Notes under the pieces: model-generated
Told to the model about the DNA's origin: nothing
Seen by the model: the letters and a program-made list of their open reading frames with translations, nothing else
Database searches by the model: none
Made by a program: the position numbers and the translations under genes
Origin: a virus
DNA length: 10,294 nucleotides
Virus genome (UHGV): UHGV-1651392
Reading direction: 5' to 3' (one strand)
In this document: positions 1-10,294 of the stretch, one piece after another
How positions within the stretch are numbered: the stretch's first letter is position 1
How the letters are laid out: each line of letters opens with the position of its first letter

Positions 1-48
1 GATCCGAACGTTACAGAAAGAAAAAGCGCCCCGTTGCTAGATAACAGG

Positions 49-78
49 CAAAACAAAGGCGACCGGGATAGGTCGCCA
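49..78 (-). terminator. Putative rho-independent terminator for leftward transcription
   Basis: Perfect 7-bp inverted repeat GGCGACC (59-65) / GGTCGCC (72-78) with a 6-nt loop. On the minus strand it is followed by a T-rich run (complement of 49-58, CTTTGTTTTG). Lies downstream of the leftward genes at 381-560 and 144-323. Confidence 0.35.
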
Positions 79-143
79 GTGGGAACAAAGGAAATCAAAC
101 GCATCGCCAACAATGCCAGATTTGCGGCTGGTGGGCAATGTGA

Positions 144-323
144 TCAGTCAGATTTGGTTCGTTCCAGGGTTTGCAACGAGAGCTTTTTCCTGTGCTCTTT
201 AAGGAATTTCTCAAGAGCAAACGAACAAGGTGCGAATCTTTCTGATTCATGTTCATGCGCTATATTTTTGCGTCGTCTCTTACGAGTTGGTGATGGTGTT
301 TTTGTTGATTCTGTGTCGCTCAT
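144..323 (-). CDS. Hypothetical small basic protein (59 aa), possibly co-transcribed with the upstream RHH gene
   Basis: Hand-translated minus-strand ORF just under the 60-aa track cutoff: MSDTESTKTPSPTRKRRRKNIAHEHESERFAPCSFALEKFLKEHRKKLSLQTLERTKSD. ATG is complement of 321-323, stop is complement of 144-146. Only a weak RBS; sits between the RHH gene and the terminator. Could be spurious. Confidence 0.25.
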   Translation of the reverse strand: MSDTESTKTPSPTRKRRRKNIAHEHESERFAPCSFALEKFLKEHRKKLSLQTLERTKSD

Positions 324-380
324 GGTGCTGCCCTGTAAAGCAATGCGCCTGCGTTCCTCAAACTATGGCGCTGATAGTGG

Positions 381-560
381 CTATTCCTGCTCTTTGGCCT
401 TGCGCCGCTGGCGGCGTTTGATCTCGCCTTCAAGTGCTGAAACGATAAATTGTCCCGTGCTTTCGCCAGCTTCCTTTAAGTTTTCTACAGCGTCGGCTAT
501 TGCGTGGGGAACTCGTGCTTCAAGTTTCTTCGATTTTGCATTAACGGCCTTCGTTGCCAT
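381..560 (-). CDS. Ribbon-helix-helix (CopG/Arc/MetJ-type) DNA-binding regulator, 59 aa; putative repressor of the element
   Basis: Internal ATG (complement of 558-560) of track ORF 381..677 is preceded by a strong RBS (AAGAGGA, complement of about 567-573). Product MATKAVNAKSKKLEARVPHAIADAVENLKEAGESTGQFIVSALEGEIKRRQRRKAKEQE shows the RHH pattern: short beta-strand (LEARVP), helix A, GES turn, helix B, basic tail. The longer track start would add a hydrophobic extension encoded over the operator repeats, so it is rejected. Confidence 0.7.
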   Translation of the reverse strand: MATKAVNAKSKKLEARVPHAIADAVENLKEAGESTGQFIVSALEGEIKRRQRRKAKEQE

Positions 561-580
561 ATCTGGATTCCTCTTTATTA

Positions 581-661
581 GGTGGCTGACAGTATACACA
601 CAAGAAATCGAAAAAACACTATTGACGTGGCTGACACCTGTTACTAATATGGTGGCTGACA
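581..661. promoter_or_regulatory. Candidate operator: three direct repeats of GTGGCTGACA between divergent genes
   Basis: Exact 10-mer GTGGCTGACA at 582-591, 627-636 and 652-661 (first and third extend to GGTGGCTGACA). The second lies in the promoter spacer and the third over the predicted transcription start. Confidence 0.5.
622..650 (+). promoter_or_regulatory. Sigma70-type promoter for the rightward operon (-35 TTGACG, 17-bp spacer, -10 TAATAT)
   Basis: TTGACG at 622-627 and TAATAT at 645-650 with a 17-bp spacer; about 110 bp upstream of the first rightward CDS (761). Confidence 0.5.
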
Positions 662-760
662 CTTTTAGTTGTTGCAAGCAACAAAACGACGAAACCCCGC
701 ACTGTTGGAGCAGTAACGGGGCCTCTAACCACCAACGATAGCGAAAGTATCGAGGTAGCT

Positions 761-964
761 ATGTTAAATCATACCACACACCCGCAAGGGCGGGATTCGC
801 ACAACCTGAATAAATACATCTGGCGTTTTATCGCCCTGAGCACGGCACAACCGCGCGTGATTACCATCGAGGCCACCAGCGAACAGAAAGCCCGTCAGCA
901 ATCCCCGGCTGGCTGCGTGATGGTATTTACTGCTCGCATCCGTCAGGGGGAATACTATGCGTGA
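761..964 (+). CDS. Small hypothetical protein (67 aa), first gene of the rightward early operon
   Basis: Track ORF with GAGG at 752-755 just upstream of the ATG at 761. Its stop overlaps the next start (ATGCGTGA). My unverified recollection is that similar small proteins in P4-like/PICI islands are annotated Icd-like. Confidence 0.55.
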   Translation: MLNHTTHPQGRDSHNLNKYIWRFIALSTAQPRVITIEATSEQKARQQSPAGCVMVFTARIRQGEYYA

Positions 965-1214
965 TGAACGATTTATTCTTCTGGAGCAAAAATTCAGTGA
1001 AGCGCCAAAAAATGAAATTGATGCTCTTTTGCATATCGCGAATATGCTAAAAGTAGCAACGTTCCTTATAGTTTCGAATCTGGAGCATGAAACGGCGTTA
1101 GATATACTGAACAGTGCTGTCGATTATTCTGAATATATTGCCGAGGATAAATACAGGCAATTACCAGATTTGTTAGCCCATAAATATAAAGAAGAACCTC
1201 ACACCGGGAAATAA
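957..1214 (+). CDS. Hypothetical protein (85 aa), noticeably AT-rich gene
   Basis: Track ORF; start overlaps the upstream stop by 8 nt; RBS GGGGGA upstream. Looks clearly AT-richer than its neighbours by eye (not counted). Confidence 0.55.
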   Translation: MRDERFILLEQKFSEAPKNEIDALLHIANMLKVATFLIVSNLEHETALDILNSAVDYSEYIAEDKYRQLPDLLAHKYKEEPHTGK

Positions 1215-1216
1215 AC

Positions 1217-1519
1217 ATGAAGAAGATTAAATTTACTGGCTTAAATGCCAGCGGACAGACTCATCCGAAAATCAGGATCGGGGATATTTTCCGGGATAAA
1301 TATGGTGACAGCGTGGTTATTAATTCCGTGTATGAACGGCACATTACATACCGCCGCGCAGGGTATGACTATGACTGTGTGATGCCCGTTCATCAGTTCC
1401 GGCGTGATTTTTCACTGGTATGTGCAGCACCACGCAGTAAGCCCACCAGTAAAGAGAAAGCACGGGCAAATATTCAGGTAATAAAGAACATGATTAACGC
1501 ATTCAGGGGCAAGAAATGA
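1217..1519 (+). CDS. Hypothetical protein (100 aa)
   Basis: Track ORF starting 2 nt after the previous stop; its stop overlaps the next ATG (ATGA at 1516-1519), suggesting coupling. Confidence 0.55.
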   Translation: MKKIKFTGLNASGQTHPKIRIGDIFRDKYGDSVVINSVYERHITYRRAGYDYDCVMPVHQFRRDFSLVCAAPRSKPTSKEKARANIQVIKNMINAFRGKK

Positions 1520-3642
1520 AACGCGCACCGAATTTAAAGCACCAGCCGAAAGACAAAATGACGGAGGTGATTATCTTTGCGGGTAGTGATGCCTGGGCAC
1601 ATGCGAAAGAGTGGAGCGAATGGGCCGGAAAGCATATTGCGGCAGATGATACACATCCAGTTATTCTTGGACCGGAACAACTGGCGAGTCTGGCAGACAC
1701 GCAAATCATCGACAAAGGGCGCTATTACGTGCGCGTTTATCGTGCTGGTGAAATATCAGAGCAGCACCTTACACAGATAGCGACACTGCTTGCAGTGGCG
1801 GGTGTGAAGGAGGCGCGTTGCTACCGCAGCTTTGTTGATCAGCAGCCGGAGGACTGGACACCGCGCATGACTGGACTGAAGGATGATGCGGAACGCGGTA
1901 ACAGTCTGGTGATCAACCTTCCGGCGAAGACAAATTTCACCGGAAATTATGATGACGAATTAAAGCCTCGTGTTGAAAGTCGCGTCGATGGTGTTTTCTG
2001 GGTAACGCCCAAAGTGGACAAGCAGTCAGGCGAAATTATCCGGCCTGAGACGTGGTTATGTTCTCCGCTTGAACTACTGGGAACAGGAACAATCGGCAAA
2101 GAGCATTACCGCGTGATGCGCTGGAAAAAACCAGCAAACCATGAGGTCATTACAATGGCGGTCCCGTGCGGAGGCATTGGTGACCGTGACGGCTGGCGGT
2201 TGCTGAAAGACCACGGCCTTAACGTGACGACCAACGGCAAATACAGGGCTATCCTGGCTGACTGGATGCAGTTAAGCGGAAACCATGAGGAATGGCAGTT
2301 AAGCACAACAACGGGGTGGCATTTTGGTGCGTACATCATGCCGGATGGTTCGATCATCGGTGAATCAGAGAAACCCATCCTGTTTACCGGAAAAACTGCC
2401 GCTGTTAATGGCTATTCCGTGGCGGGAACAGCGGAGGGCTGGCGCGATACCGTGGCACGGCTGGCTGGTGGTAATCCGTCCATGATGCTGGGTGTGGCGG
2501 TATCGCTATCTGCACCATTAATCGGGCTGGTGGGTGCTGACGGCTTCGGGGTTCATCTTTTTGAGCAATCATCAGCAGGTAAAACCACCACACAGAACAT
2601 TGCCTCAAGTTTATGGGGAGAGCCGGACGCGCAACGGCTGACCTGGTACGGAACGGCGTTAGGTATCGCCAACGAGGCCGAAGCACATAATGACGGGCTG
2701 TTACCCCTGGATGAAATAGGCCAGGCCGGAAACGCACGGGAGGTGTCCACGTCAGCCTATACGCTGTTTAACGGTTCCGGGAAATTACAGGGGGCGAAGG
2801 ACGGCGGCAACAGGGAGATAAAACACTGGCGTACGGTGGCAATCAGCACCGGAGAAATGGACGTTGAAACATTCCTCAAAACGGAAGGGATAAAAATTAA
2901 AGCGGGGCAGCTTGTCCGTCTGCTTAACGTACCGATGGAAAAGGCCTCGCAGTTTCACGAATACAGCACCGGAAAGGCGCACGCAGACGCGTTAAAAAAT
3001 GCCTGGACAGAAAATCACGGGGCGGCAGGTCGTGAGTGGGTTAAATGGCTGGCAGGTCACCAGCAGGAGGCAAAGGACGCGGTAAAGGCATGTCGCGAGC
3101 GGTGGCGCAACCTGATACCGGAGAGCTACGGCGAGCAGGTTCACCGTGTGGGGGAAAGATTCGCCGTACTGGAGGCCGCGCTTGTGCTTTCCGGTCATGT
3201 TACAGGCTGGGATGTTCAGGCGTGCCGTGATGCAGTTCAGCATAACTTTAATGCCTGGGTGAAGGAATTCGGCACGGGCAACAGGGAATTTAAACAGATG
3301 GTTGAACAGGCTGAGGCGTTTTTGTCGTCGTTCGGGTTCAGTCGATACCTTCCCTATCCAAACAGCGACGAGCGTGATTTACCGATTAAAGACCTTGCCG
3401 GATACAGAAAGGGGAGCATCAGAAACGAAGATGAGGAGTTCCGTTTTTACACGTTCCCGCATGTGTTTGAGGGTGAGATAGCACAGGGATTTAATCCGTC
3501 TCACTTTGCCCGCGCGTTGAGTGCTGCCGGAATGCTGGAAGCGGGAGGCGACCGCCGTTACAAGAAAAAGGCGCTCGGCAGGATTGGCGGGAAGCAGCAT
3601 ATTTTTTACGTGCTGATGTTCCAGCCTGAAGCAGAATATTAA
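1516..3642 (+). CDS. Replication protein: P-loop NTPase of the DUF927-like primase/helicase type (708 aa)
   Basis: Long ORF with coupled start. Walker A-like motif SSAGKTTT (about 2566-2592) and Walker B-like hhhhDE motif LLPLDEIGQ (about 2698-2724). Directly followed by an iteron cluster, as expected for a Rep/initiator gene. Confidence 0.8.
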   Translation: MKRAPNLKHQPKDKMTEVIIFAGSDAWAHAKEWSEWAGKHIAADDTHPVILGPEQLASLADTQIIDKGRYYVRVYRAGEISEQHLTQIATLLAVAGVKEARCYRSFVDQQPEDWTPRMTGLKDDAERGNSLVINLPAKTNFTGNYDDELKPRVESRVDGVFWVTPKVDKQSGEIIRPETWLCSPLELLGTGTIGKEHYRVMRWKKPANHEVITMAVPCGGIGDRDGWRLLKDHGLNVTTNGKYRAILADWMQLSGNHEEWQLSTTTGWHFGAYIMPDGSIIGESEKPILFTGKTAAVNGYSVAGTAEGWRDTVARLAGGNPSMMLGVAVSLSAPLIGLVGADGFGVHLFEQSSAGKTTTQNIASSLWGEPDAQRLTWYGTALGIANEAEAHNDGLLPLDEIGQAGNAREVSTSAYTLFNGSGKLQGAKDGGNREIKHWRTVAISTGEMDVETFLKTEGIKIKAGQLVRLLNVPMEKASQFHEYSTGKAHADALKNAWTENHGAAGREWVKWLAGHQQEAKDAVKACRERWRNLIPESYGEQVHRVGERFAVLEAALVLSGHVTGWDVQACRDAVQHNFNAWVKEFGTGNREFKQMVEQAEAFLSSFGFSRYLPYPNSDERDLPIKDLAGYRKGSIRNEDEEFRFYTFPHVFEGEIAQGFNPSHFARALSAAGMLEAGGDRRYKKKALGRIGGKQHIFYVLMFQPEAEY

Positions 3643-3665
3643 CTTCCCTGTGTGAGGTAAAAAGT

Positions 3666-3790
3666 TGCGGGTTATGCGGGTTATCCTGTGTATAAGTTAA
3701 TTAAATGCATGATTAAAAAGGAAATCAATAACCCGCACGTAACCCGCAAAACGGCAGTTATAACCCGCAAATGTGCGATTGTAACCCGCA
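3666..3790. repeat. Iteron cluster, putative replication origin (or Rep/regulator binding array)
   Basis: 9-mer TAACCCGCA direct copies at 3729-3737, 3740-3748, 3761-3769 and 3782-3790 (spacings 11, 21, 21 bp). Two tandem inverted copies TGCGGGTTA at 3666-3674 and 3675-3683. They flank an AT-rich core at 3684-3728. Confidence 0.55.
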
Positions 3791-3852
3791 AAATTTCACT
3801 GTAAGAGTGTAAACAAGCGTAACTATCACGTTAAAACCGGAGAACAAACAGC

Positions 3853-4278
3853 ATGACGGCGCAAATATCAGCTTACGGGCGGCTGGTGGCTGACCCGCAG
3901 TTAAAGACCACCAGCAAGGGCACACAAATGGCGATGGCGAGTATGGCGGTCCCCCTTCCATGCAATCAGGCAGATGACGGAACGGCGACGATGTGGTTAT
4001 CCGTCCTGGCGTTTGGCAGACAGGCTGACGCACTGGCAAAACACCACAAAGGCGAACTGGTGAGCGTGGCCGGTAACATGCAGGTGAGCCGGTGGACGGG
4101 CCAGAACGGCGAAACGAGGCAGGGATGGCAGGTTATCGCAGACAGCGTAATCAGTGCGCGAACGGCGCGACCGGGCGGCAAAAAAGGCCAGCAGGGGCAG
4201 GCTACTGATGCACTGAACAGGGCAAAGCAACAGACAGGCCAGCACGATGATCCGTACGGGGACGGGATACCGTTTTAA
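3853..4278 (+). CDS. ssb: Single-stranded DNA-binding protein (141 aa)
   Basis: RBS GGAGAA at 3839-3844. OB-fold-like core with conserved aromatic positions, a Gly/Gln-rich linker and an acidic C-terminal tail ending DDPYGDGIPF (compare E. coli SSB DDDIPF). Confidence 0.85.
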   Translation: MTAQISAYGRLVADPQLKTTSKGTQMAMASMAVPLPCNQADDGTATMWLSVLAFGRQADALAKHHKGELVSVAGNMQVSRWTGQNGETRQGWQVIADSVISARTARPGGKKGQQGQATDALNRAKQQTGQHDDPYGDGIPF

Positions 4279-4314
4279 TTCACAACAGCGAACAGAGTAA
4301 TTACAGGGGAAGGC

Positions 4315-4812
4315 ATGACAAAGCTGACCATAAACAGAAAACCGAAGGGCATTTACGGCACGCCGCAGAAAACAGCACAGGCGGCGCAGCAGCAGAATAA
4401 AACCACATCGGCGCATAAAGTGATGCCAGATAACCAGAACACACAGCAGAAGCTCACAGGAGCAACACCGCGGCGGCGTATGACCAAACAGCAGCGTAAA
4501 AACCGCAGACGCGTTAACCGTCTTATTGAGCTATGGCCTGAATTATTCAGCCCGGAATCACCTAAGCCGCTTAAGGTGGGGATATTTGACGACCTGATAC
4601 AGGATATTGCCGCGAGAGGTATTTCACTCGGACAGGGAACACTACGCGCAACGCTGGCGCGTTATGTGCAGACTCCGCGCTATTACCGCGCCCTGGTAGC
4701 TGGTGGCGCGCGTTACGACCTGAAAGGCCAGCCGTGCGGCGAGGTAACACCACTACAACAGACGCACGCAGGAAAACTACTGGAGGAGATGAATGGAAAT
4801 AGAAAGAAATGA
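4315..4812 (+). CDS. ProQ/FinO-family RNA-binding protein (165 aa)
   Basis: RBS AGGGGA at about 4303-4308. Segment [27 protein letters not shown]...[35 protein letters not shown] closely parallels the ProQ N-terminal FinO domain (PLKIGIF.DL ... LR.AL..Y..S.RY ... R.DL.G.PCGE). Confidence 0.85.
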
Positions 4813-5209
4813 TCACGCACATGGTCGCCGTGCAGGTGATCACATTGTGGATGAAATTGCGAAAAAACAAAGAGTTGACATTGTTGTCAGTGTCACAGTC
4901 GAGAGCGCGAAGCGCCAAAATAAGCGTATAAATGATCATTCAGATGTACATGGTGTGATCACTCGTTTACGCCAGACTTTTGTAACTCGTGAAGAGATGA
5001 TTGAAGCTATTGACCAGCATACAGCATGTATCAGCGTCAGGGATATACCGGAGATCATTGCTAACTACTTCATGATCACCAGACGCCTTTACCGGAGAAA
5101 AGACAAGAGCACGGTTAACCGTCTCCTGATGTCTGATATTCGCGAATACCTGCAAGAAAGAGGCTATGTGAATCCACCAGAACAGCACTACGGAAAAGTC
5201 GGAGGCTAA
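4793..5209 (+). CDS. Hypothetical protein (138 aa), overlapping the 3' end of the ProQ/FinO gene
   Basis: Track ORF; ATG at 4793 preceded by GGAGGA at 4782-4787 (5-nt spacer); overlaps the upstream gene by 20 nt. No recognisable motifs. Confidence 0.6.
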
Positions 5210-5293
5210 CTAAAACCCTGTACCGAAGAGCGGCGGCGCGATGGGGTGAAGTAATGCAGTTGGGGTACTGACAAGGAACGGTATTGCATATCA

Positions 5294-5443
5294 ATGCGAC
5301 GACTGGAATGTTCCAGGAAGGCACAGAGGCCACCGAAGCAACCGGATAATTTAGAAGACCTGAAACGGTCGCTTAAACGCACTGAAAAAGAAATGGGGAT
5401 AGATGGGATCGGGAAATCAGTATGGCGTAACTACCAGAAGTAA
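5294..5443 (+). CDS. Possible small basic protein (49 aa); alternatively part of a small RNA
   Basis: Hand-translated: MRRLECSRKAQRPPKQPDNLEDLKRSLKRTEKEMGIDGIGKSVWRNYQK. Stop TAA at 5441-5443 lies 6 nt before a strong terminator. No convincing RBS (AAGGAA is 15 nt upstream). Confidence 0.25.
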   Translation: MRRLECSRKAQRPPKQPDNLEDLKRSLKRTEKEMGIDGIGKSVWRNYQK

Positions 5444-5449
5444 GCACAG

Positions 5450-5473
5450 AGCCGGAGCAATCCGGCTTTTTTT
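5450..5473 (+). terminator. Rho-independent terminator
   Basis: Perfect 7-bp stem AGCCGGA (5450-5456) / TCCGGCT (5461-5467) with GCAA loop, followed by a run of seven T ending at 5473. Confidence 0.65.
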
Positions 5474-5575
5474 GGGGCTGAAATCAATCAATCTGTTTTT
5501 GTGATAGAAATATGTTTATCTACCACTTTTTCAGATCAATAATGTGCATAGTTTAGTCAGTAAGAGGAAATTGCT

Positions 5576-5782
5576 GTGAATTGTATTAACGACCTGAACA
5601 CAGGCGATGTCAGAGGTGGTTCCGTTCATCTGGATGCACAGACCGTGATGCGCCTTAAGCAGTACAGAATCGACCATGTGAACAATCACCCTGATCAGCC
5701 ATTACCAGGCGTGGCGCAGATTGTCAGACATGCCGTAAACGCCTGGCTTAATCAGAATGGTTTTGCATCGGGGGGTGAGTAA
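5576..5782 (+). CDS. Small protein (68 aa), GTG start; possible ribbon-helix-helix-like regulator
   Basis: GTG at 5576 preceded by a strong RBS AAGAGGAAA (5562-5570). Pattern SVHLDAQTVMRLKQY ... GVAQIVRHAVNAWLNQNG is compatible with a strand-helix-helix fold (weak). Stop overlaps a short downstream reading frame. Confidence 0.5.
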   Translation: MNCINDLNTGDVRGGSVHLDAQTVMRLKQYRIDHVNNHPDQPLPGVAQIVRHAVNAWLNQNGFASGGE

Positions 5783-5878
5783 TGAATCGCTGGTACAGCA
5801 TCAAAGCGGAGGGACGCCAATGTTATTTAAATCAGGTTTTATGAATTCTGGTACACGATTCAAAACAGGGGGTTACTG

Positions 5879-8410
5879 ATGCCAGTCGTACCAACAGTAT
5901 CCGGACGCCAGGTTGAGAGCCGTGGAGTTCAGTCAGCAGGCTTGCAGACGTTTTCTCAGCCAGATATTGGTGATGCTTTTGTTCGGGCAGGGACAGAGGC
6001 AATTGATGTTCTTGGTCAGGCAAAACAGCGCGCCAATATTGCCTTGGTTCAGGAGGCATCCCTTAAACTCAGTCAGACAGGCAGTGATCTGCTGAATAAT
6101 CCTGAAACAGGATTGCTTAACTTGAAAGGGAAAAATGCTATTGGAAAAGGCCATGAGTATACACAGCAGTTTGATGCTCAGATCGAACAACTGGCTATGT
6201 CGCTGCCGGATGAACAGGCTCGTAATGCTTTCATGCAGCAGGCGCAGCAGCAGCGTATTCAGTTCGCTACGCAGGCCGGGAGGTACGAGATAGGGCAAAT
6301 AAATGCCTACGAAGAAGGCCAGTTTCAGGCGACACTGCTGAATAATGGTAAAAATGCCTCAGCATTATATGGCGACAACGCAGCATACATATTGGCTAAT
6401 ACGCAAACTTTCCAGCAAATTGAGGATTACGGTATTGCGCATGGCTGGAGCGACGAGCAAATCCAGGCCAAGAAAATCGAGTTTAAAGAAGCAACAGCAA
6501 AAGCAACTGCTCAAAATGCTATTGGAGCAAACTATCTTCAGGTAAGACAGCAAAATGGCGAGTTAAGCGATACTGCTGCTGGATCTCGCCGTGCTGTAGC
6601 AGATAGTGGCTCTTCCGATCGTACCCGCGGTATACGCAACAATAACCCCGGCAATCTTGAATACAGCAAAACTAATCCGTGGGTTGGGCAGACTGGTGAT
6701 GATGGTCGCTTTGCCAAATTCGAAACCCCTGAACACGGTATTCGCGCGCTTGGTCGCAATTTGCTGTCGTATCAGCGTCAGGGTTATGACACCATCAGCG
6801 AAATAATTAATCGCTGGGCACCGGCCAGTGATGATAATAAAACTGATGCTTATATACGGGCAGTATGTGCTCAGCTCGGTGTAACTCCTGACCAGCCGCT
6901 TGACGCATCAAATCCTGACACACTGAAATCTCTGTGCAAAGCAATTATTCATCATGAGCAAGGCAGTCAGCCGTACAGTGATCAGCAATTGGCCGCTGGC
7001 GTTAGTGCCGCACTGGGGCTTTCTCAGCTACCGACAAAAAATAAACGTTATACCGGTGTAGCCTGGTTCGATGCTTTAAGTGAATCAGATCAGGCCAGCG
7101 TGTTGCGACAGACGGATGCATTAGCCAGACAGCAGCAGGCTGAATATAGAACGATGCTCGAAAGCCGGGTTCGCGATGCAACGGCTGCGTATATGCGTGG
7201 CGTTGAATTTCCTAACCCGCCTGGTGAGGGTGAGTTCATTGCTGCTTATGGTGTCAGAGAAGGAAACCTGCGATATACCGAGTTCAGAAATTTGCAGATC
7301 GCCGGACAGTATATAGGCTCTTTCCGCAACATGCCGACAAGCAGCATTACCGCATATGTTGAGCAATTACGCCCGGATACTGGTGAGACAGGGGAGGGGT
7401 ATGCGTCTCGTGCGGAGTTATTCGACCGGGTATCGGCGGCAGCCACGAAGGTAATAACCCAGAGGCAGAATAATCCGTTTAGTGCAGCGGTGGAAATCGG
7501 AGCCTATAAGCCGATCACCAGCAACAACCCTGACGACATCACTGCCGAGGTGGCTAACCGTTTCTCGTCGCAGGAAAGCTTACGCGCGTTGGGAATTAAT
7601 GCCCCACTCCTCAACAGTGAAGAGGCGGCTGCGCTGGCACAGCAGGTGCGCGGCACTCAGAACGTTGACCAGACAATTAAACTGTTGCAGAGCATGGGGG
7701 AGAAGCTGCCTGCGCCAGCAATACGGCAGGTGGCATCTGTAATTGCTCCGAACAGTGCGGCAACAGCCTATTCTGCGCTGCTGCTGGGCACGCCGGATAA
7801 CCAGTACGACAACACCAGGCCGACGATCCCATATAGTCAGTTCATCGGGTATAAGCCGACGATGAACAAGTACGACGTTGCAAAGGTTATTCTTTCCGGC
7901 GACCAACTACTGAATCCGACGAAGGCCATGAAGAATGCGGGCATAACTCCGGTACAGTTGCCGAGCGAAGATAAGATGAAAGACGCTTTCGACGAACAGG
8001 TAGGTAATGCATTTGCCCGTAACCCGCAGTTACGCCAGATCAGTTATAGCCTTTTCAAAGCCGCTTACGCAGGAATAGCTTATCAATCTGGTGATGCCTC
8101 TACGGTAAGAACCAGTATGCCTGATACAGACATTGTAGCTGATGCCGTGAAGTATGCTACTGGCGGTATATACAATGGTTTTAATGGCGGCGACGTTGTA
8201 ATGCCTTTTGGCATGGATAAATCTACTTTCAAAGATCGCTATACCACATCTGCGAAACAAGCACTGAAAGATGCCGGACTTAACGTAAATGCAGTGTCAA
8301 ATTTCACGCCAGTTAATATCGGCAATAACCGGTATCGGCTTGTAAATGGTAGCGGACGCTGGGCAACAGATCCCAGAACCAATAAAGCTATTGTCGTGAG
8401 GGTTGAATAA
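5879..8410 (+). CDS. Large protein of unknown function (843 aa); possibly a virion/cell-envelope-associated or effector-type protein
   Basis: Long ORF with RBS AGGGGG (5866-5871). Gln/Ala-rich, probably helical N-terminal third. Central segment with conserved-looking motif RTRGIRNNNPGNLEYSKTNPWVGQTGDDGRFAKFETPEHGIRALGRNLL. Stop overlaps the next ATG (TAATG at 8408-8412). Function not assignable from sequence alone. Confidence 0.8.
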   Translation: MPVVPTVSGRQVESRGVQSAGLQTFSQPDIGDAFVRAGTEAIDVLGQAKQRANIALVQEASLKLSQTGSDLLNNPETGLLNLKGKNAIGKGHEYTQQFDAQIEQLAMSLPDEQARNAFMQQAQQQRIQFATQAGRYEIGQINAYEEGQFQATLLNNGKNASALYGDNAAYILANTQTFQQIEDYGIAHGWSDEQIQAKKIEFKEATAKATAQNAIGANYLQVRQQNGELSDTAAGSRRAVADSGSSDRTRGIRNNNPGNLEYSKTNPWVGQTGDDGRFAKFETPEHGIRALGRNLLSYQRQGYDTISEIINRWAPASDDNKTDAYIRAVCAQLGVTPDQPLDASNPDTLKSLCKAIIHHEQGSQPYSDQQLAAGVSAALGLSQLPTKNKRYTGVAWFDALSESDQASVLRQTDALARQQQAEYRTMLESRVRDATAAYMRGVEFPNPPGEGEFIAAYGVREGNLRYTEFRNLQIAGQYIGSFRNMPTSSITAYVEQLRPDTGETGEGYASRAELFDRVSAAATKVITQRQNNPFSAAVEIGAYKPITSNNPDDITAEVANRFSSQESLRALGINAPLLNSEEAAALAQQVRGTQNVDQTIKLLQSMGEKLPAPAIRQVASVIAPNSAATAYSALLLGTPDNQYDNTRPTIPYSQFIGYKPTMNKYDVAKVILSGDQLLNPTKAMKNAGITPVQLPSEDKMKDAFDEQVGNAFARNPQLRQISYSLFKAAYAGIAYQSGDASTVRTSMPDTDIVADAVKYATGGIYNGFNGGDVVMPFGMDKSTFKDRYTTSAKQALKDAGLNVNAVSNFTPVNIGNNRYRLVNGSGRWATDPRTNKAIVVRVE

Positions 8411-10245
8411 TGTCTGATGTTTTTTCTTTGGCTCCAGAAGGTCAGGCATGGATTGACGACAAAACAGTTGCCAACCCAGCAAGGCCAGAAGACTACGATC
8501 CGACTCCCTTCCAGGGTTCAGGTACTGCACTTTTGAGCGGCGTGGCGGAGGGGGCTCTCGGTCTCGCGCAGTCTGCCGTCGGATTCAGCAAGCGCCTGAT
8601 TAGCGATCCGGCATTTACCGCAGACGTGGCACCGACAGTTAATATTTTTCGGGAGATGTTCCCTGATGCTGACAAAACACTGAATGATACATACGACACG
8701 ATCGGAAAACAGTTACAGGATGCCCGCAGCTATGTGAAGCCTGATGCAGGCAGCCAGGGAATGGCGGCTGAGGTATTAAATGAGGTTGGTAAATTTGTTC
8801 CTGCAATCGGAACAACTATGTTTGGTGGTCCGCTCATCGGCGCTGCTACAGCCTTCAGTTCTACGTATGAGCAGTCCTATCAGGATTTTAAAGGGAAGGG
8901 AGTAGACGAGGCTACAGCGCGTAACCTGGCAACGCAGCAGAGCCTTTTCAATGCTGTGGGTATGGCCTTACCCGCTGCCGTCGGCACCACACTGGCAACG
9001 CGCATTGCCTCAGGTGTGGCAATCAACACCGGATTCGGTGGACTGAACCGTTACTCAGTAGGCGCAACACTGGAGGAAAAAGGCTACACGGAGATGGCAA
9101 AACAGTACCGGGTATTTGACGGTCAGGCGATGTTAGTCGATGCCGTTTTAGGCGGGGTCTTTGGTGGCGTTCATCACCTGACTACCCATAATAACCATGA
9201 TGGTACAGAGTCGAACATTTCTGCAGAAGAAATAAAATCAACTTTTGGTGAACATTATCAGCAATCTCCTGATGGTAACATTGAGTCAATGGTTCGTGAT
9301 TTATCTGATTCAGGAGTAATAGAACTTATTAATGAACCAGCAATAAAAAATAGTGATGGAGAAATACTTCTGAATAAAGGTCATGTGACAGTAGCTTCCG
9401 GAAAAGAACCAATAATAAGAATAAATATTAATGGATTAAAAGACCATGAAGAACTGTTAGAAACCCTTCATCACGAGGCGCTTCATCTTGAGCAGCGCCA
9501 TTACCCTGACTGGAAGGCCAGAAAGCTAGCTAATGCTGTACTTAAATCTGCAAACAAGCATTCTGACTATCCTGAATTTGCATATGGGATGTCACAATAT
9601 TATGAATATAAGAAAAGGGGTGAGTACCCTGAAACATATCCTGAGTGGTTGTACGCTGAAGAAGTTGCCGCACATGCAGTAAATCCATCTCTAAAGACAA
9701 GCGTTTCATCATGGGAAAAAATTATTTCAGGTTTTAAAGCCTATATATTCAGATACAGTGGTATTCAGGTTGGAACCGTTACACCTGAGCAGTTACGGTT
9801 ACTCGTAAGTATGCGTCTTCGCAATATGAAACTGGAAGCCGCAGTAGAAAAAGTTTTTGGTATCCGGGCGAGGGAAAGAATAAAACCAAGCGATATTGAT
9901 GCAGCCCACATTTTGAATGAGGGGCTTCATTACGATATTGAATCGTCACCAGTGCTTCATACCAGCAATGAGAGCATCAACAGCCATGTTGACGCCATGG
10001 ATGAAGCATACAGGCAACTTAATGATGGTCAGCCTGTAAATGTTGGGGGGATGGCGCGAGGGCTTGATGGTCCATTGCGATCAGATATATCTGATACTTA
10101 CCAAGAGCAATACCATGAAATACAAAAGGTTTTTGAAGAAAATGGTGTCAGATACGAAACATCATCAGAGCCAATTAGTGAATCGCCTGTCCCTCGTGAA
10201 CCGCCCCGGGAATCCTGGAGACTAAACTTCCTGAGAAAGAGGTAA
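8410..10245 (+). CDS. Modular protein (611 aa as read): GC-rich Gly/Ala-rich hydrophobic N-terminal trunk plus AT-rich C-terminal domain with HExxH motif; 3' end fused to and truncated by an IS element
   Basis: Coupled start with RBS GAGGG (8398-8402). N-terminal 257 aa contain repeated small-residue hydrophobic segments (for example GTTMFGGPLIGAATAF, ALPAAVGTTLATRIASGVAINTGFGG, VLGGVFGGV). Sampled 60-nt blocks fall from 57-68% GC to 28-35% GC at about 9180. HEALH motif at 9472-9486. The last 16 codons (from 10197) are IS-derived, so the native C-terminus is missing or altered. Confidence 0.75.
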   Translation: MSDVFSLAPEGQAWIDDKTVANPARPEDYDPTPFQGSGTALLSGVAEGALGLAQSAVGFSKRLISDPAFTADVAPTVNIFREMFPDADKTLNDTYDTIGKQLQDARSYVKPDAGSQGMAAEVLNEVGKFVPAIGTTMFGGPLIGAATAFSSTYEQSYQDFKGKGVDEATARNLATQQSLFNAVGMALPAAVGTTLATRIASGVAINTGFGGLNRYSVGATLEEKGYTEMAKQYRVFDGQAMLVDAVLGGVFGGVHHLTTHNNHDGTESNISAEEIKSTFGEHYQQSPDGNIESMVRDLSDSGVIELINEPAIKNSDGEILLNKGHVTVASGKEPIIRININGLKDHEELLETLHHEALHLEQRHYPDWKARKLANAVLKSANKHSDYPEFAYGMSQYYEYKKRGEYPETYPEWLYAEEVAAHAVNPSLKTSVSSWEKIISGFKAYIFRYSGIQVGTVTPEQLRLLVSMRLRNMKLEAAVEKVFGIRARERIKPSDIDAAHILNEGLHYDIESSPVLHTSNESINSHVDAMDEAYRQLNDGQPVNVGGMARGLDGPLRSDISDTYQEQYHEIQKVFEENGVRYETSSEPISESPVPREPPRESWRLNFLRKR

Positions 10246-10294
10246 ACAGGATGACTAAAAATACTCGTTTTTCCCCCGAAGTCCGTCAACGGGC
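10197..10294 (+). mobile_element. Left end of an IS3-family insertion sequence (IS629/IS1203-like), continuing beyond the window
   Basis: Sequence TGAACCGCCCCGGGAATCCTGGAGACTAAACTTCCTGAGAAAGAGGTAAACAGG followed by ATG ... MTKNTRFSPEVRQR matches my recollection of the IS629-type left inverted repeat and OrfA start. The exact boundary (10196/10197) is from memory and needs confirmation. Confidence 0.6.
10251..10294 (+). CDS. IS3-family transposase OrfA, N-terminal fragment (partial at window edge)
   Basis: ATG at 10251 with RBS GAGG (about 10240-10243); translation MTKNTRFSPEVRQR(A) is characteristic of IS3-family OrfA helix-turn-helix proteins. Confidence 0.7.
   Translation, partial: MTKNTRFSPEVRQR

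Follow-up and report, generated by a model that had tools for sequence, protein, structure and literature searches.

The window analyzed here, the whole stretch of 10,294 nucleotides from virus genome UHGV-1651392, closes on a 611-aa open reading frame that runs into the terminus of an insertion sequence (IS), which raises the question of what this gene encoded before it was interrupted and what became of the gene that should follow it. The sequence-only reading had proposed that an IS3-family element truncates the gene and that, if the product were a toxin or an effector, the IS now occupies the place where a cognate immunity or partner gene would be expected.

An IS629 End Supplies the Last Codons of the Reading Frame

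The 611-aa open reading frame (8410..10245, + strand; Table 1) crosses the 10196/10197 boundary, and both its translation and the IS alignment confirm, in coordinates and in count, the earlier claim that its last 16 codons are encoded by the IS. The product ends in ...SESPVPR followed by EPPRESWRLNFLRKR and a TAA stop at 10243-10245. In codon 596 (CGT, 10195-10197), the third base is already the first base of the IS; 15 IS-encoded codons and the stop come next. All three frames that enter this IS end stop before the transposase gene orfA, at 10197-10199 (TGA), 10223-10225 (TAA), and 10243-10245 (TAA).

The element is IS629, which is multicopy in Escherichia coli; across 5,426 complete genomes, the median is 3 places per genome and the maximum 50. 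Positions 10197-10294 match IS3-family transposase loci in 3,587 of these 5,426 genomes, many of them 100% identical (E 3e-43). When this segment is aligned with the annotated IS629 of the Stx2a phage LC567824.1, a curated copy of 1310 bp with a 4-bp target duplication (CCAG), 97 of 98 positions are identical and the sole mismatch is at 10277. The first base of the annotated element aligns with window position 10197, where the terminal sequence (TGAACCGCCCCGGG... / TGAACCGCC...) is as at the annotated IS629 start, which puts the terminus exactly at 10197 and not elsewhere. The left and right terminal inverted repeats of the annotated copy match each other at 22 of 25 positions, and its ends read TG...CA. 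A full 1310-bp IS copy follows the same junction in a short metagenomic contig, L015, and is 99.54% identical to the annotated IS629, a value to be read with the caveat that the IS interior in a short-read contig may be a consensus of several copies. Both the window segment (97/98) and the full copy in L015 (99.54%) lie above the 95% nucleotide identity to the reference that is required of an IS629 isoform; IS1203 and IS3411 are near-identical isoforms of IS629 in ISfinder usage. The orfA coding sequence, which begins 54 nt inside the annotated IS629, starts at window position 10251 (ATGACTAAAAATACT...) and is represented in the window by its first 14 codons. RefSeq assigns a programmed frameshift to copies that are identical over these 98 nt.

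As for the precise position of the junction, the window can be aligned with the uninterrupted allele of E. coli MS 196-1 from 1 to 10198, where homology stops, and the 10,198 aligned nt contain 2 mismatches. The two extra homologous bases arise because the target reads ...CTCG TG CTG... and the IS itself starts with TG. As judged from these alignments, the junction is ambiguous by 2 nt and consistent with 10196/10197. The left flank of the IS is CTCG, and the intact allele reads CCCTCGTGCTG at this place; the target duplications made by IS629 measure 3-4 bp.

The possibility that the junction is an assembly artifact, in which island DNA was chimerically joined to an IS from elsewhere in the metagenome, draws on the origin of the window in a short-read metagenome assembly and on the appearance of L015, which looks chimeric on the other side of the IS. 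However, the island sequence is joined precisely to base 1 of the IS terminal repeat, and the 2 nt of identity shared by the unique DNA and the IS are far too short for a k-mer-driven misjoin. Moreover, the identical left junction is found in three metagenome assemblies (ERZ773176, ERZ914890, and ERZ839489), which come from at least two different assemblers by contig names (NODE_..., k127_...), and it is therefore no one-off assembly error. An artifactual junction is, in our view, scarcely credible.

Table 1. Features of the window, with the gene that follows in intact loci
Feature	Position	Strand	Basis
gp15-like internal virion protein (predicted), lytic-transglycosylase region, 843 aa	5879..8410	+	phrog_992 (E 5e-290), phrog_1044, phrog_7182 (head protein, endolysin, "tail injection transglycosylase")
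gp16-like internal-virion/ejection protein gene (predicted), native codons 1-596	8410..10197	+	WP_001286072.1; phrog_1145; epsilon15 gp16
Presumptive target site CTCG	10193..10196	.	Sequence; intact allele; second copy beyond window
IS629 left end (IS3 family); inverted repeat about 10197-10221; remainder of 1310 bp past window	10197..10294	+	Sequence matches
IS-encoded tail of fused reading frame (EPPRESWRLNFLRKR) and TAA	10198..10245	+	Translation
IS629 transposase orfA start (MTKNTRFSPEVRQR...), codirectional with interrupted gene	10251..10294	+	Annotated IS629
gp17-like protein, 918 aa, downstream in intact loci			phrog_684 (virion structural protein), E 2.5e-295

The Intact Allele Extends 90 Conserved Residues Past the Junction

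The unique part of the window and the chromosome of MS 196-1 (NZ_CP146681.1) share 99.98% identity, and the first 596 residues of the interrupted protein are identical at 595 of 596 positions to WP_001286072.1 from this strain. There, the gene lies in an island between yicC and dinD, with 24-nt imperfect direct repeats 18,920 bp apart. Its 2,061 nt code for 686 aa, and it continues past the junction with AESAFSSAGEHRGD...ESKVYSVAAACFLRNP. Uninterrupted homologues thus supply both the native C terminus (90 aa) and the native downstream gene, which encodes the 918-aa gp17-like protein. Since the intact homologues (686 aa) run 90 conserved residues beyond the junction and none ends there, the insertion lies inside the gene and not just past its natural stop. 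The truncation by an IS3-family element that had been read from the letters alone is therefore correct, the element being IS629 (97/98) and the intact allele 686 aa long.

The interrupted form is rare. While the uninterrupted allele is present in 37 of the 5,426 complete E. coli genomes, the IS junction is present in none of the 5,426, and the left junction was not found in GTDB species representatives or viral contigs. The truncated 611-aa protein is encoded on 2 contigs, versus 381 contigs that carry the exact intact protein.

The 90 residues that have been lost are near-invariant in 11 homologues from Escherichia, Enterobacter, Salmonella, Klebsiella, and Lelliottia, and this segment alone matches the last 77 positions of phrog_1145 (E 7.5e-26). 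The conserved C-terminal segment of the family, profile positions 518-594 of phrog_1145, is missing in the window, having been removed by the IS. The lost segment also holds the best-predicted stretch of a poor AlphaFold model, with a pLDDT of 83-88 at about residues 630-670. On sequence grounds, the interrupted gene is a disrupted member of the phrog_1145 family. When island copies at two chromosomal sites are compared, pN/pS is 0.09 for gp16, 0.32 for gp15, and 0.14 for gp17, ratios that come from small counts and that mark the gp16-like gene as being under constraint in the islands.

The Interrupted Gene Is a Predicted Epsilon15 gp16-Type Ejection Protein Gene

Against phrog_1145, the truncated protein reaches E 6e-107 and its intact counterpart E 2e-136; tblastn gives about 82% identity to epsilon15 gp16 across the conserved N- and C-terminal parts. 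In the epsilon15 record, the gene order is gp15 (a putative lytic transglycosylase), gp16, gp17, gp18. The gp15-like protein of the window is 68-79% identical to epsilon15 gp15 by tblastx, and the stop of its gene overlaps the start of the interrupted gene, while in intact loci the ATG of the gp17-like gene overlaps the TAA of gp16 (TAATG). The gene is therefore flanked by gp15 and gp17 relatives with overlapping stops and starts, an arrangement of which the window itself shows the upstream half only. By homology and position, the interrupted gene is an orthologue of gp16 of Salmonella phage epsilon15. Pfam returned no match for the interrupted protein or its neighbors. A tblastx comparison of the island with epsilon15 shows that only the gp15-gp17 module is shared, at 68-86% identity, together with weak integrase similarity. 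Relatives in other species (Ca. Erwinia dacicola, Pseudocitrobacter, Scandinavium) and in another E. coli assembly belong to complete Uetakevirus-like prophages, which carry capsid, gp12, a T7_gp14-like gene, gp15-17 in this same order, and tailspike.

As for function, epsilon15 is among the podophages with homologous ejection-protein operons (review, PMC8954989), and its gp15-gp17 are regarded in the literature as part of the core/injection apparatus. The conserved N-terminal third of the gp16-like protein contains glycine-rich hydrophobic stretches. Classified by orthology, the gp16-like product is a predicted internal-virion or ejection protein, and the island copy may be packaged in the virion and ejected with the DNA. 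PDB sequence and profile searches found no sequence similarity to the solved ejection proteins of T7 or P22.

Members of the family share a plan in which a conserved N-terminal part (~260 aa) and a conserved C-terminal part (~190 aa) enclose a variable center. This center is nearly absent in 521-aa forms, amounts to ~110 aa in 629-636-aa forms, and reaches ~230 aa in the present allele, where it displays an HExxH motif (HEALH, residues 355-359). Its PHROG matches are weak, the best being DarB-like anti-restriction (E 2.5e-4), and it has no Pfam match, even at E up to 10. Sequence and profile searches of the PDB were negative for it as well. A phmmer search of 1.84 billion representative proteins returned no homologues of the insert, save a 74-aa fragment of the same protein. 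The same center recurs in a 70%-identical protein whose surroundings are phage-like and include a gp14-like gene upstream. The AlphaFold model, with a mean pLDDT of 53 for the insert and 45 over the full length, is too poor for fold comparison.

It is this center that lends some substance to the idea of a 611-aa toxin or secreted effector whose expected immunity or partner gene has been replaced by the IS, since an orphan insert of ~230 aa with HEALH and a weak DarB-like match makes an injected "cargo" activity conceivable. However, no toxin or immunity family is matched in Pfam, epsilon15 gp16 is the orthologue of the conserved N- and C-terminal parts, and the gene order is that of podovirus ejection proteins. 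Furthermore, the native downstream gene encodes a 918-aa virion protein and is no small immunity gene, and family members that have no insert (521 aa) have the same neighbors. A toxin that has lost its immunity partner is thus very improbable, and we retain the assignment to the gp16-type ejection proteins.

A Simple Insertion Is Favored Over a Rearrangement

The window is 100% identical to ENA contigs in ERZ914890 (run ERR589801; 268-10561 of 10,590) and in ERZ773176, both of which stop within the IS. The other IS end and a target duplication, which the sequence-only reading had proposed to look for beyond the window, can be sought in L015 (ERZ839489; 2,615 bp, 9x coverage), which shows the same left junction and the full 1310-bp IS and then enters cas7e-casB-casA. 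This contig shows no target duplication, the flanks of its IS being CTCG on the left and GTGC, from cas7e, on the right. The IS/cas7e junction is found in four complete genomes, among them MS 196-1, and since it pre-exists in MS 196-1 with gp16 intact, L015 is most likely a repeat-induced chimera. As a probable chimera, this contig is uninformative on the true right flank.

Were L015 to be taken literally, it would point to an IS629-associated deletion or rearrangement in which the rest of gp16, the gp17-like gene, and the 104-aa gene were deleted or moved, leaving the downstream partner truly displaced, as had been suggested. The passage of this contig from the island through the full IS into cas7e-casB-casA, with no target duplication, speaks for such an event. 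In addition, a simple insertion predicts a right junction made of the IS629 right end, CTCG (or TCG), and TGCTGAAAGTGC... / TGCTGAAAGTGCTTTC..., and this expected junction, the IS end and then the rest of the gene, was not found in metagenome or viral contigs, collections that are incomplete. Moreover, IS629 is associated with deletion in this lineage, since the cas7e copy in MS 196-1 has no duplication and cas7e is reduced there to 318 + 171 nt. Against this, the gp16-like and cas7e loci of MS 196-1 are 1.07 Mb apart in the same orientation, and a real island-cas7e join would require a lethal deletion or a megabase tandem duplication, so that it is simpler to suppose that a contig of 2.6 kb and 9x coverage was misrouted through a repeat present in more than 20 copies. 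The right junction was sought in collections that are incomplete and lack both contigs matching the window. When the exact gp17-like protein was looked up, only long isolate contigs came back, none of them from the samples of interest. With regard to the fate of the downstream partner, simple insertion is favored over displacement, and we regard a rearrangement as quite unlikely.

Consequences of the Insertion

The best explanation, which we consider highly probable, is that a 1310-bp IS629 copy inserted by transposition at codon 596/597 of an epsilon15-gp16-type gene of 686 codons, within an integrative island of ~18.9 kb. The host would be an E. coli strain close to MS 196-1. The fused reading frame shows that the insertion swaps the conserved last 90 residues for 15 unrelated, IS-encoded residues and an IS-borne stop, and the truncated protein may be non-functional or at least impaired. 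This product is probably defective; the gene is under constraint in the islands (pN/pS 0.09). A 1.3-kb insert would also part gp16 from the overlapping gp17-like gene and would probably, by polarity, lower expression of the remaining ejection operon; since it would break an operon coupled by overlaps, the gp17-like gene and the 104-aa gene are likely to be under-expressed. The suggestion that the IS could act outward on the expression of its neighbors gained nothing from our search, which revealed no promoter-like or terminator-like sites in 9900-10294. That the window ends inside the IS would reflect the tendency of short-read metagenome assemblies to break at a multicopy repeat.

Genes of E. 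coli prophages and islands are routinely hit by IS629, and the present case is an ordinary gene disruption of this kind; its island context is more unusual. The event itself is of little weight, being a rare allele from few gut metagenome assemblies. For annotation, the 611-aa reading frame is to be treated as a disrupted 686-aa gp16-type gene and not as a toxin lacking its immunity gene, and the end of the contig inside the IS as an assembly break.

An Island That Looks Like a Satellite

In MS 196-1, the island starts with genes for an integrase, a 216-aa hypothetical protein, and an AlpA-like HTH regulator, followed by AntA, BRO-N (a pseudogene in this strain), YlcI/YnfO, and Icd-like genes. 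Next come genes for an 85-aa hypothetical protein, a DUF4222 protein, a DUF927 primase (phrog_1139), SSB, and ProQ/FinO, and then an Ant-like gene, a PerC gene with a frameshift, and a 68-aa gene. The gp15-17-like genes and the 104-aa gene come last. In STEC388, the same cargo is found at tRNA-Gly with a different integrase, and the cargo also occurs at other sites. The index of an assembly collection lists the exact gp17-like protein in 875 blocks.

We considered whether the island is a deletion derivative of an epsilon15-type prophage, and rejected this because only the integrase (weakly) and gp15-gp17 are shared with epsilon15, and because several chromosomal sites carry the same cargo, the two that were checked differing in their integrase. 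The gene content is that of a phage-inducible chromosomal island (PICI)-like element, since an integrase, an AlpA-type regulator, and a primase/replicase are present and most virion genes are absent. We know of no satellite family with a podovirus ejection-protein module, and our literature search found no description of satellites with ejection-protein genes or of the yicC-dinD island. Known from its genes alone, the island looks like a satellite-type element that has a podovirus ejection module as its only virion cargo.

A bolder version, which we put forward tentatively and hold to be fairly unlikely, is that the ~18.9-kb island represents an undescribed type of satellite, which has only the gp15-gp16-gp17 module of a Uetakevirus (epsilon15-like) helper and would load its own ejection proteins into hijacked capsids, with an orphan HExxH domain of gp16 acting as injected cargo or effector. 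If the satellite reading were true, the IS629 allele would be a natural knockout of that function. The island may deserve separate attention, as it is common and mobile, and as its ejection module appears to be under purifying selection with no capsid or tail genes alongside.

Comparison with Known Systems

The mobile element is a known one, and the window copy of IS629 itself shows no differences; only the position of the insertion is new. As for the gene, its closest parallel is epsilon15 gp16 (634 aa), with which it shares ~82% identity over the N-terminal ~260 and C-terminal ~190 residues, as well as gene order and overlaps. In contrast to epsilon15 gp16, the island protein has as its center an unrelated insert of ~230 aa that contains an HExxH motif, and in the window the gp16-like gene is truncated by the IS. 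Unlike epsilon15, the island has no gp14, capsid, portal, terminase, or tailspike genes. With gp14/gp15/gp16 of T7 and gp7/gp20/gp16 of P22, the module has its predicted functional class and operon logic in common, and gp14 of the epsilon15 type matches Pfam T7_gp14. Finally, the island resembles PICI and P4-like satellites in having an integrase, an AlpA-type regulator, an Icd-like gene, and a primase, in the absence of capsid, terminase, and tail genes, in its 24-nt repeats, and in its presence at several chromosomal sites. Unlike the satellite families known to us, it carries three or four genes for virion-internal proteins.

Termination within IS629 and the junction with cas7e

As can be seen in the table below, the left end of IS629 presents a stop codon to any frame that reads into it. 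There is one such codon per frame (TGA at 10197, TAA at 10223 and TAA at 10243), so host ORFs that enter the element end shortly before its transposase gene orfA. The last of these, the TAA at 10243, lies directly past the GAGG ribosome-binding site of orfA and 5 nt 5' of its ATG.

Coordinates of the features discussed (compared loci are given by handle)
Feature	Location	Strand	Remarks
Integrative island, ~18.9 kb	contains window 1-10196 (whole window); L027 1261-20204		24-nt direct repeats at both ends
Orphan central insert with HExxH motif	window 9193-9879 (residues 262-490 of the 611-aa ORF)		gp16-like protein
PerC-family regulator gene	window 5218-5443		frameshifted (pseudogene) in the annotation of the near-identical MS 196-1 and STEC388 islands
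235-aa ORF, TTG start	window 34-741	+	
YlcI/YnfO family gene	window 381-560	-	RefSeq annotation, in place of the 235-aa + strand ORF
IS629 left end, stops in all three incoming frames upstream of orfA	window 10197-10253		
Island/IS junction, full IS629, cas7e-casB-casA	L015 1-2615 (ERZ839489 NODE-6818); L016 1341-2650		

In the metagenome contig L015 a full IS629 links the island/IS junction to cas7e-casB-casA, and this IS629 has no target duplication. The contig is probably chimeric, since its IS/cas7e junction already exists in four complete genomes, one of them E. coli MS 196-1, where only two fragments of cas7e remain at that junction. The comparison also shows that the type I-E CRISPR-Cas system of this lineage is disrupted by an IS.

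The ejection module has been damaged independently at other loci. The 640-aa protein P0002, with eight member sequences, is a frameshifted gp16-like allele. The gp15-like gene is interrupted by an ISL3 element in L020 and truncated (547 aa) in L021. Separately, in STEC388 (L014) the gp17-like gene is followed by IS1.

The gp16-like protein and other window genes

The HExxH motif of the central gp16-like insert reads HEALH (residues 355-359). Pfam gives no match for the insert, and a set of 1.84 billion representative proteins contains no homologue of it; it matches only a DarB-like anti-restriction PHROG, and that weakly. The center of other members of the gp16-like family is either shorter and unrelated, or nearly absent.

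As for the other genes, the window and MS 196-1 have identical PerC-family sequences. RefSeq annotates nothing that corresponds to the 235-aa ORF, and metagenome gene callers place a 272-aa gene on the + strand of the same region.

The island and its selection

The window lies inside the island, which encodes an integrase, an AlpA-like regulator, an Icd-like protein, a DUF927 primase, SSB and ProQ/FinO. Its only virion genes are those for epsilon15-type gp15-gp16-gp17, together with a 104-aa gene; gp14, capsid, portal, terminase and tailspike genes are absent from this gene content. The island occupies several chromosomal sites; two of these were compared, and their integrases differ. Purifying selection acts on its gp15, gp16 and gp17 genes (pN/pS 0.09-0.32). 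The island may represent a type of satellite not yet described.
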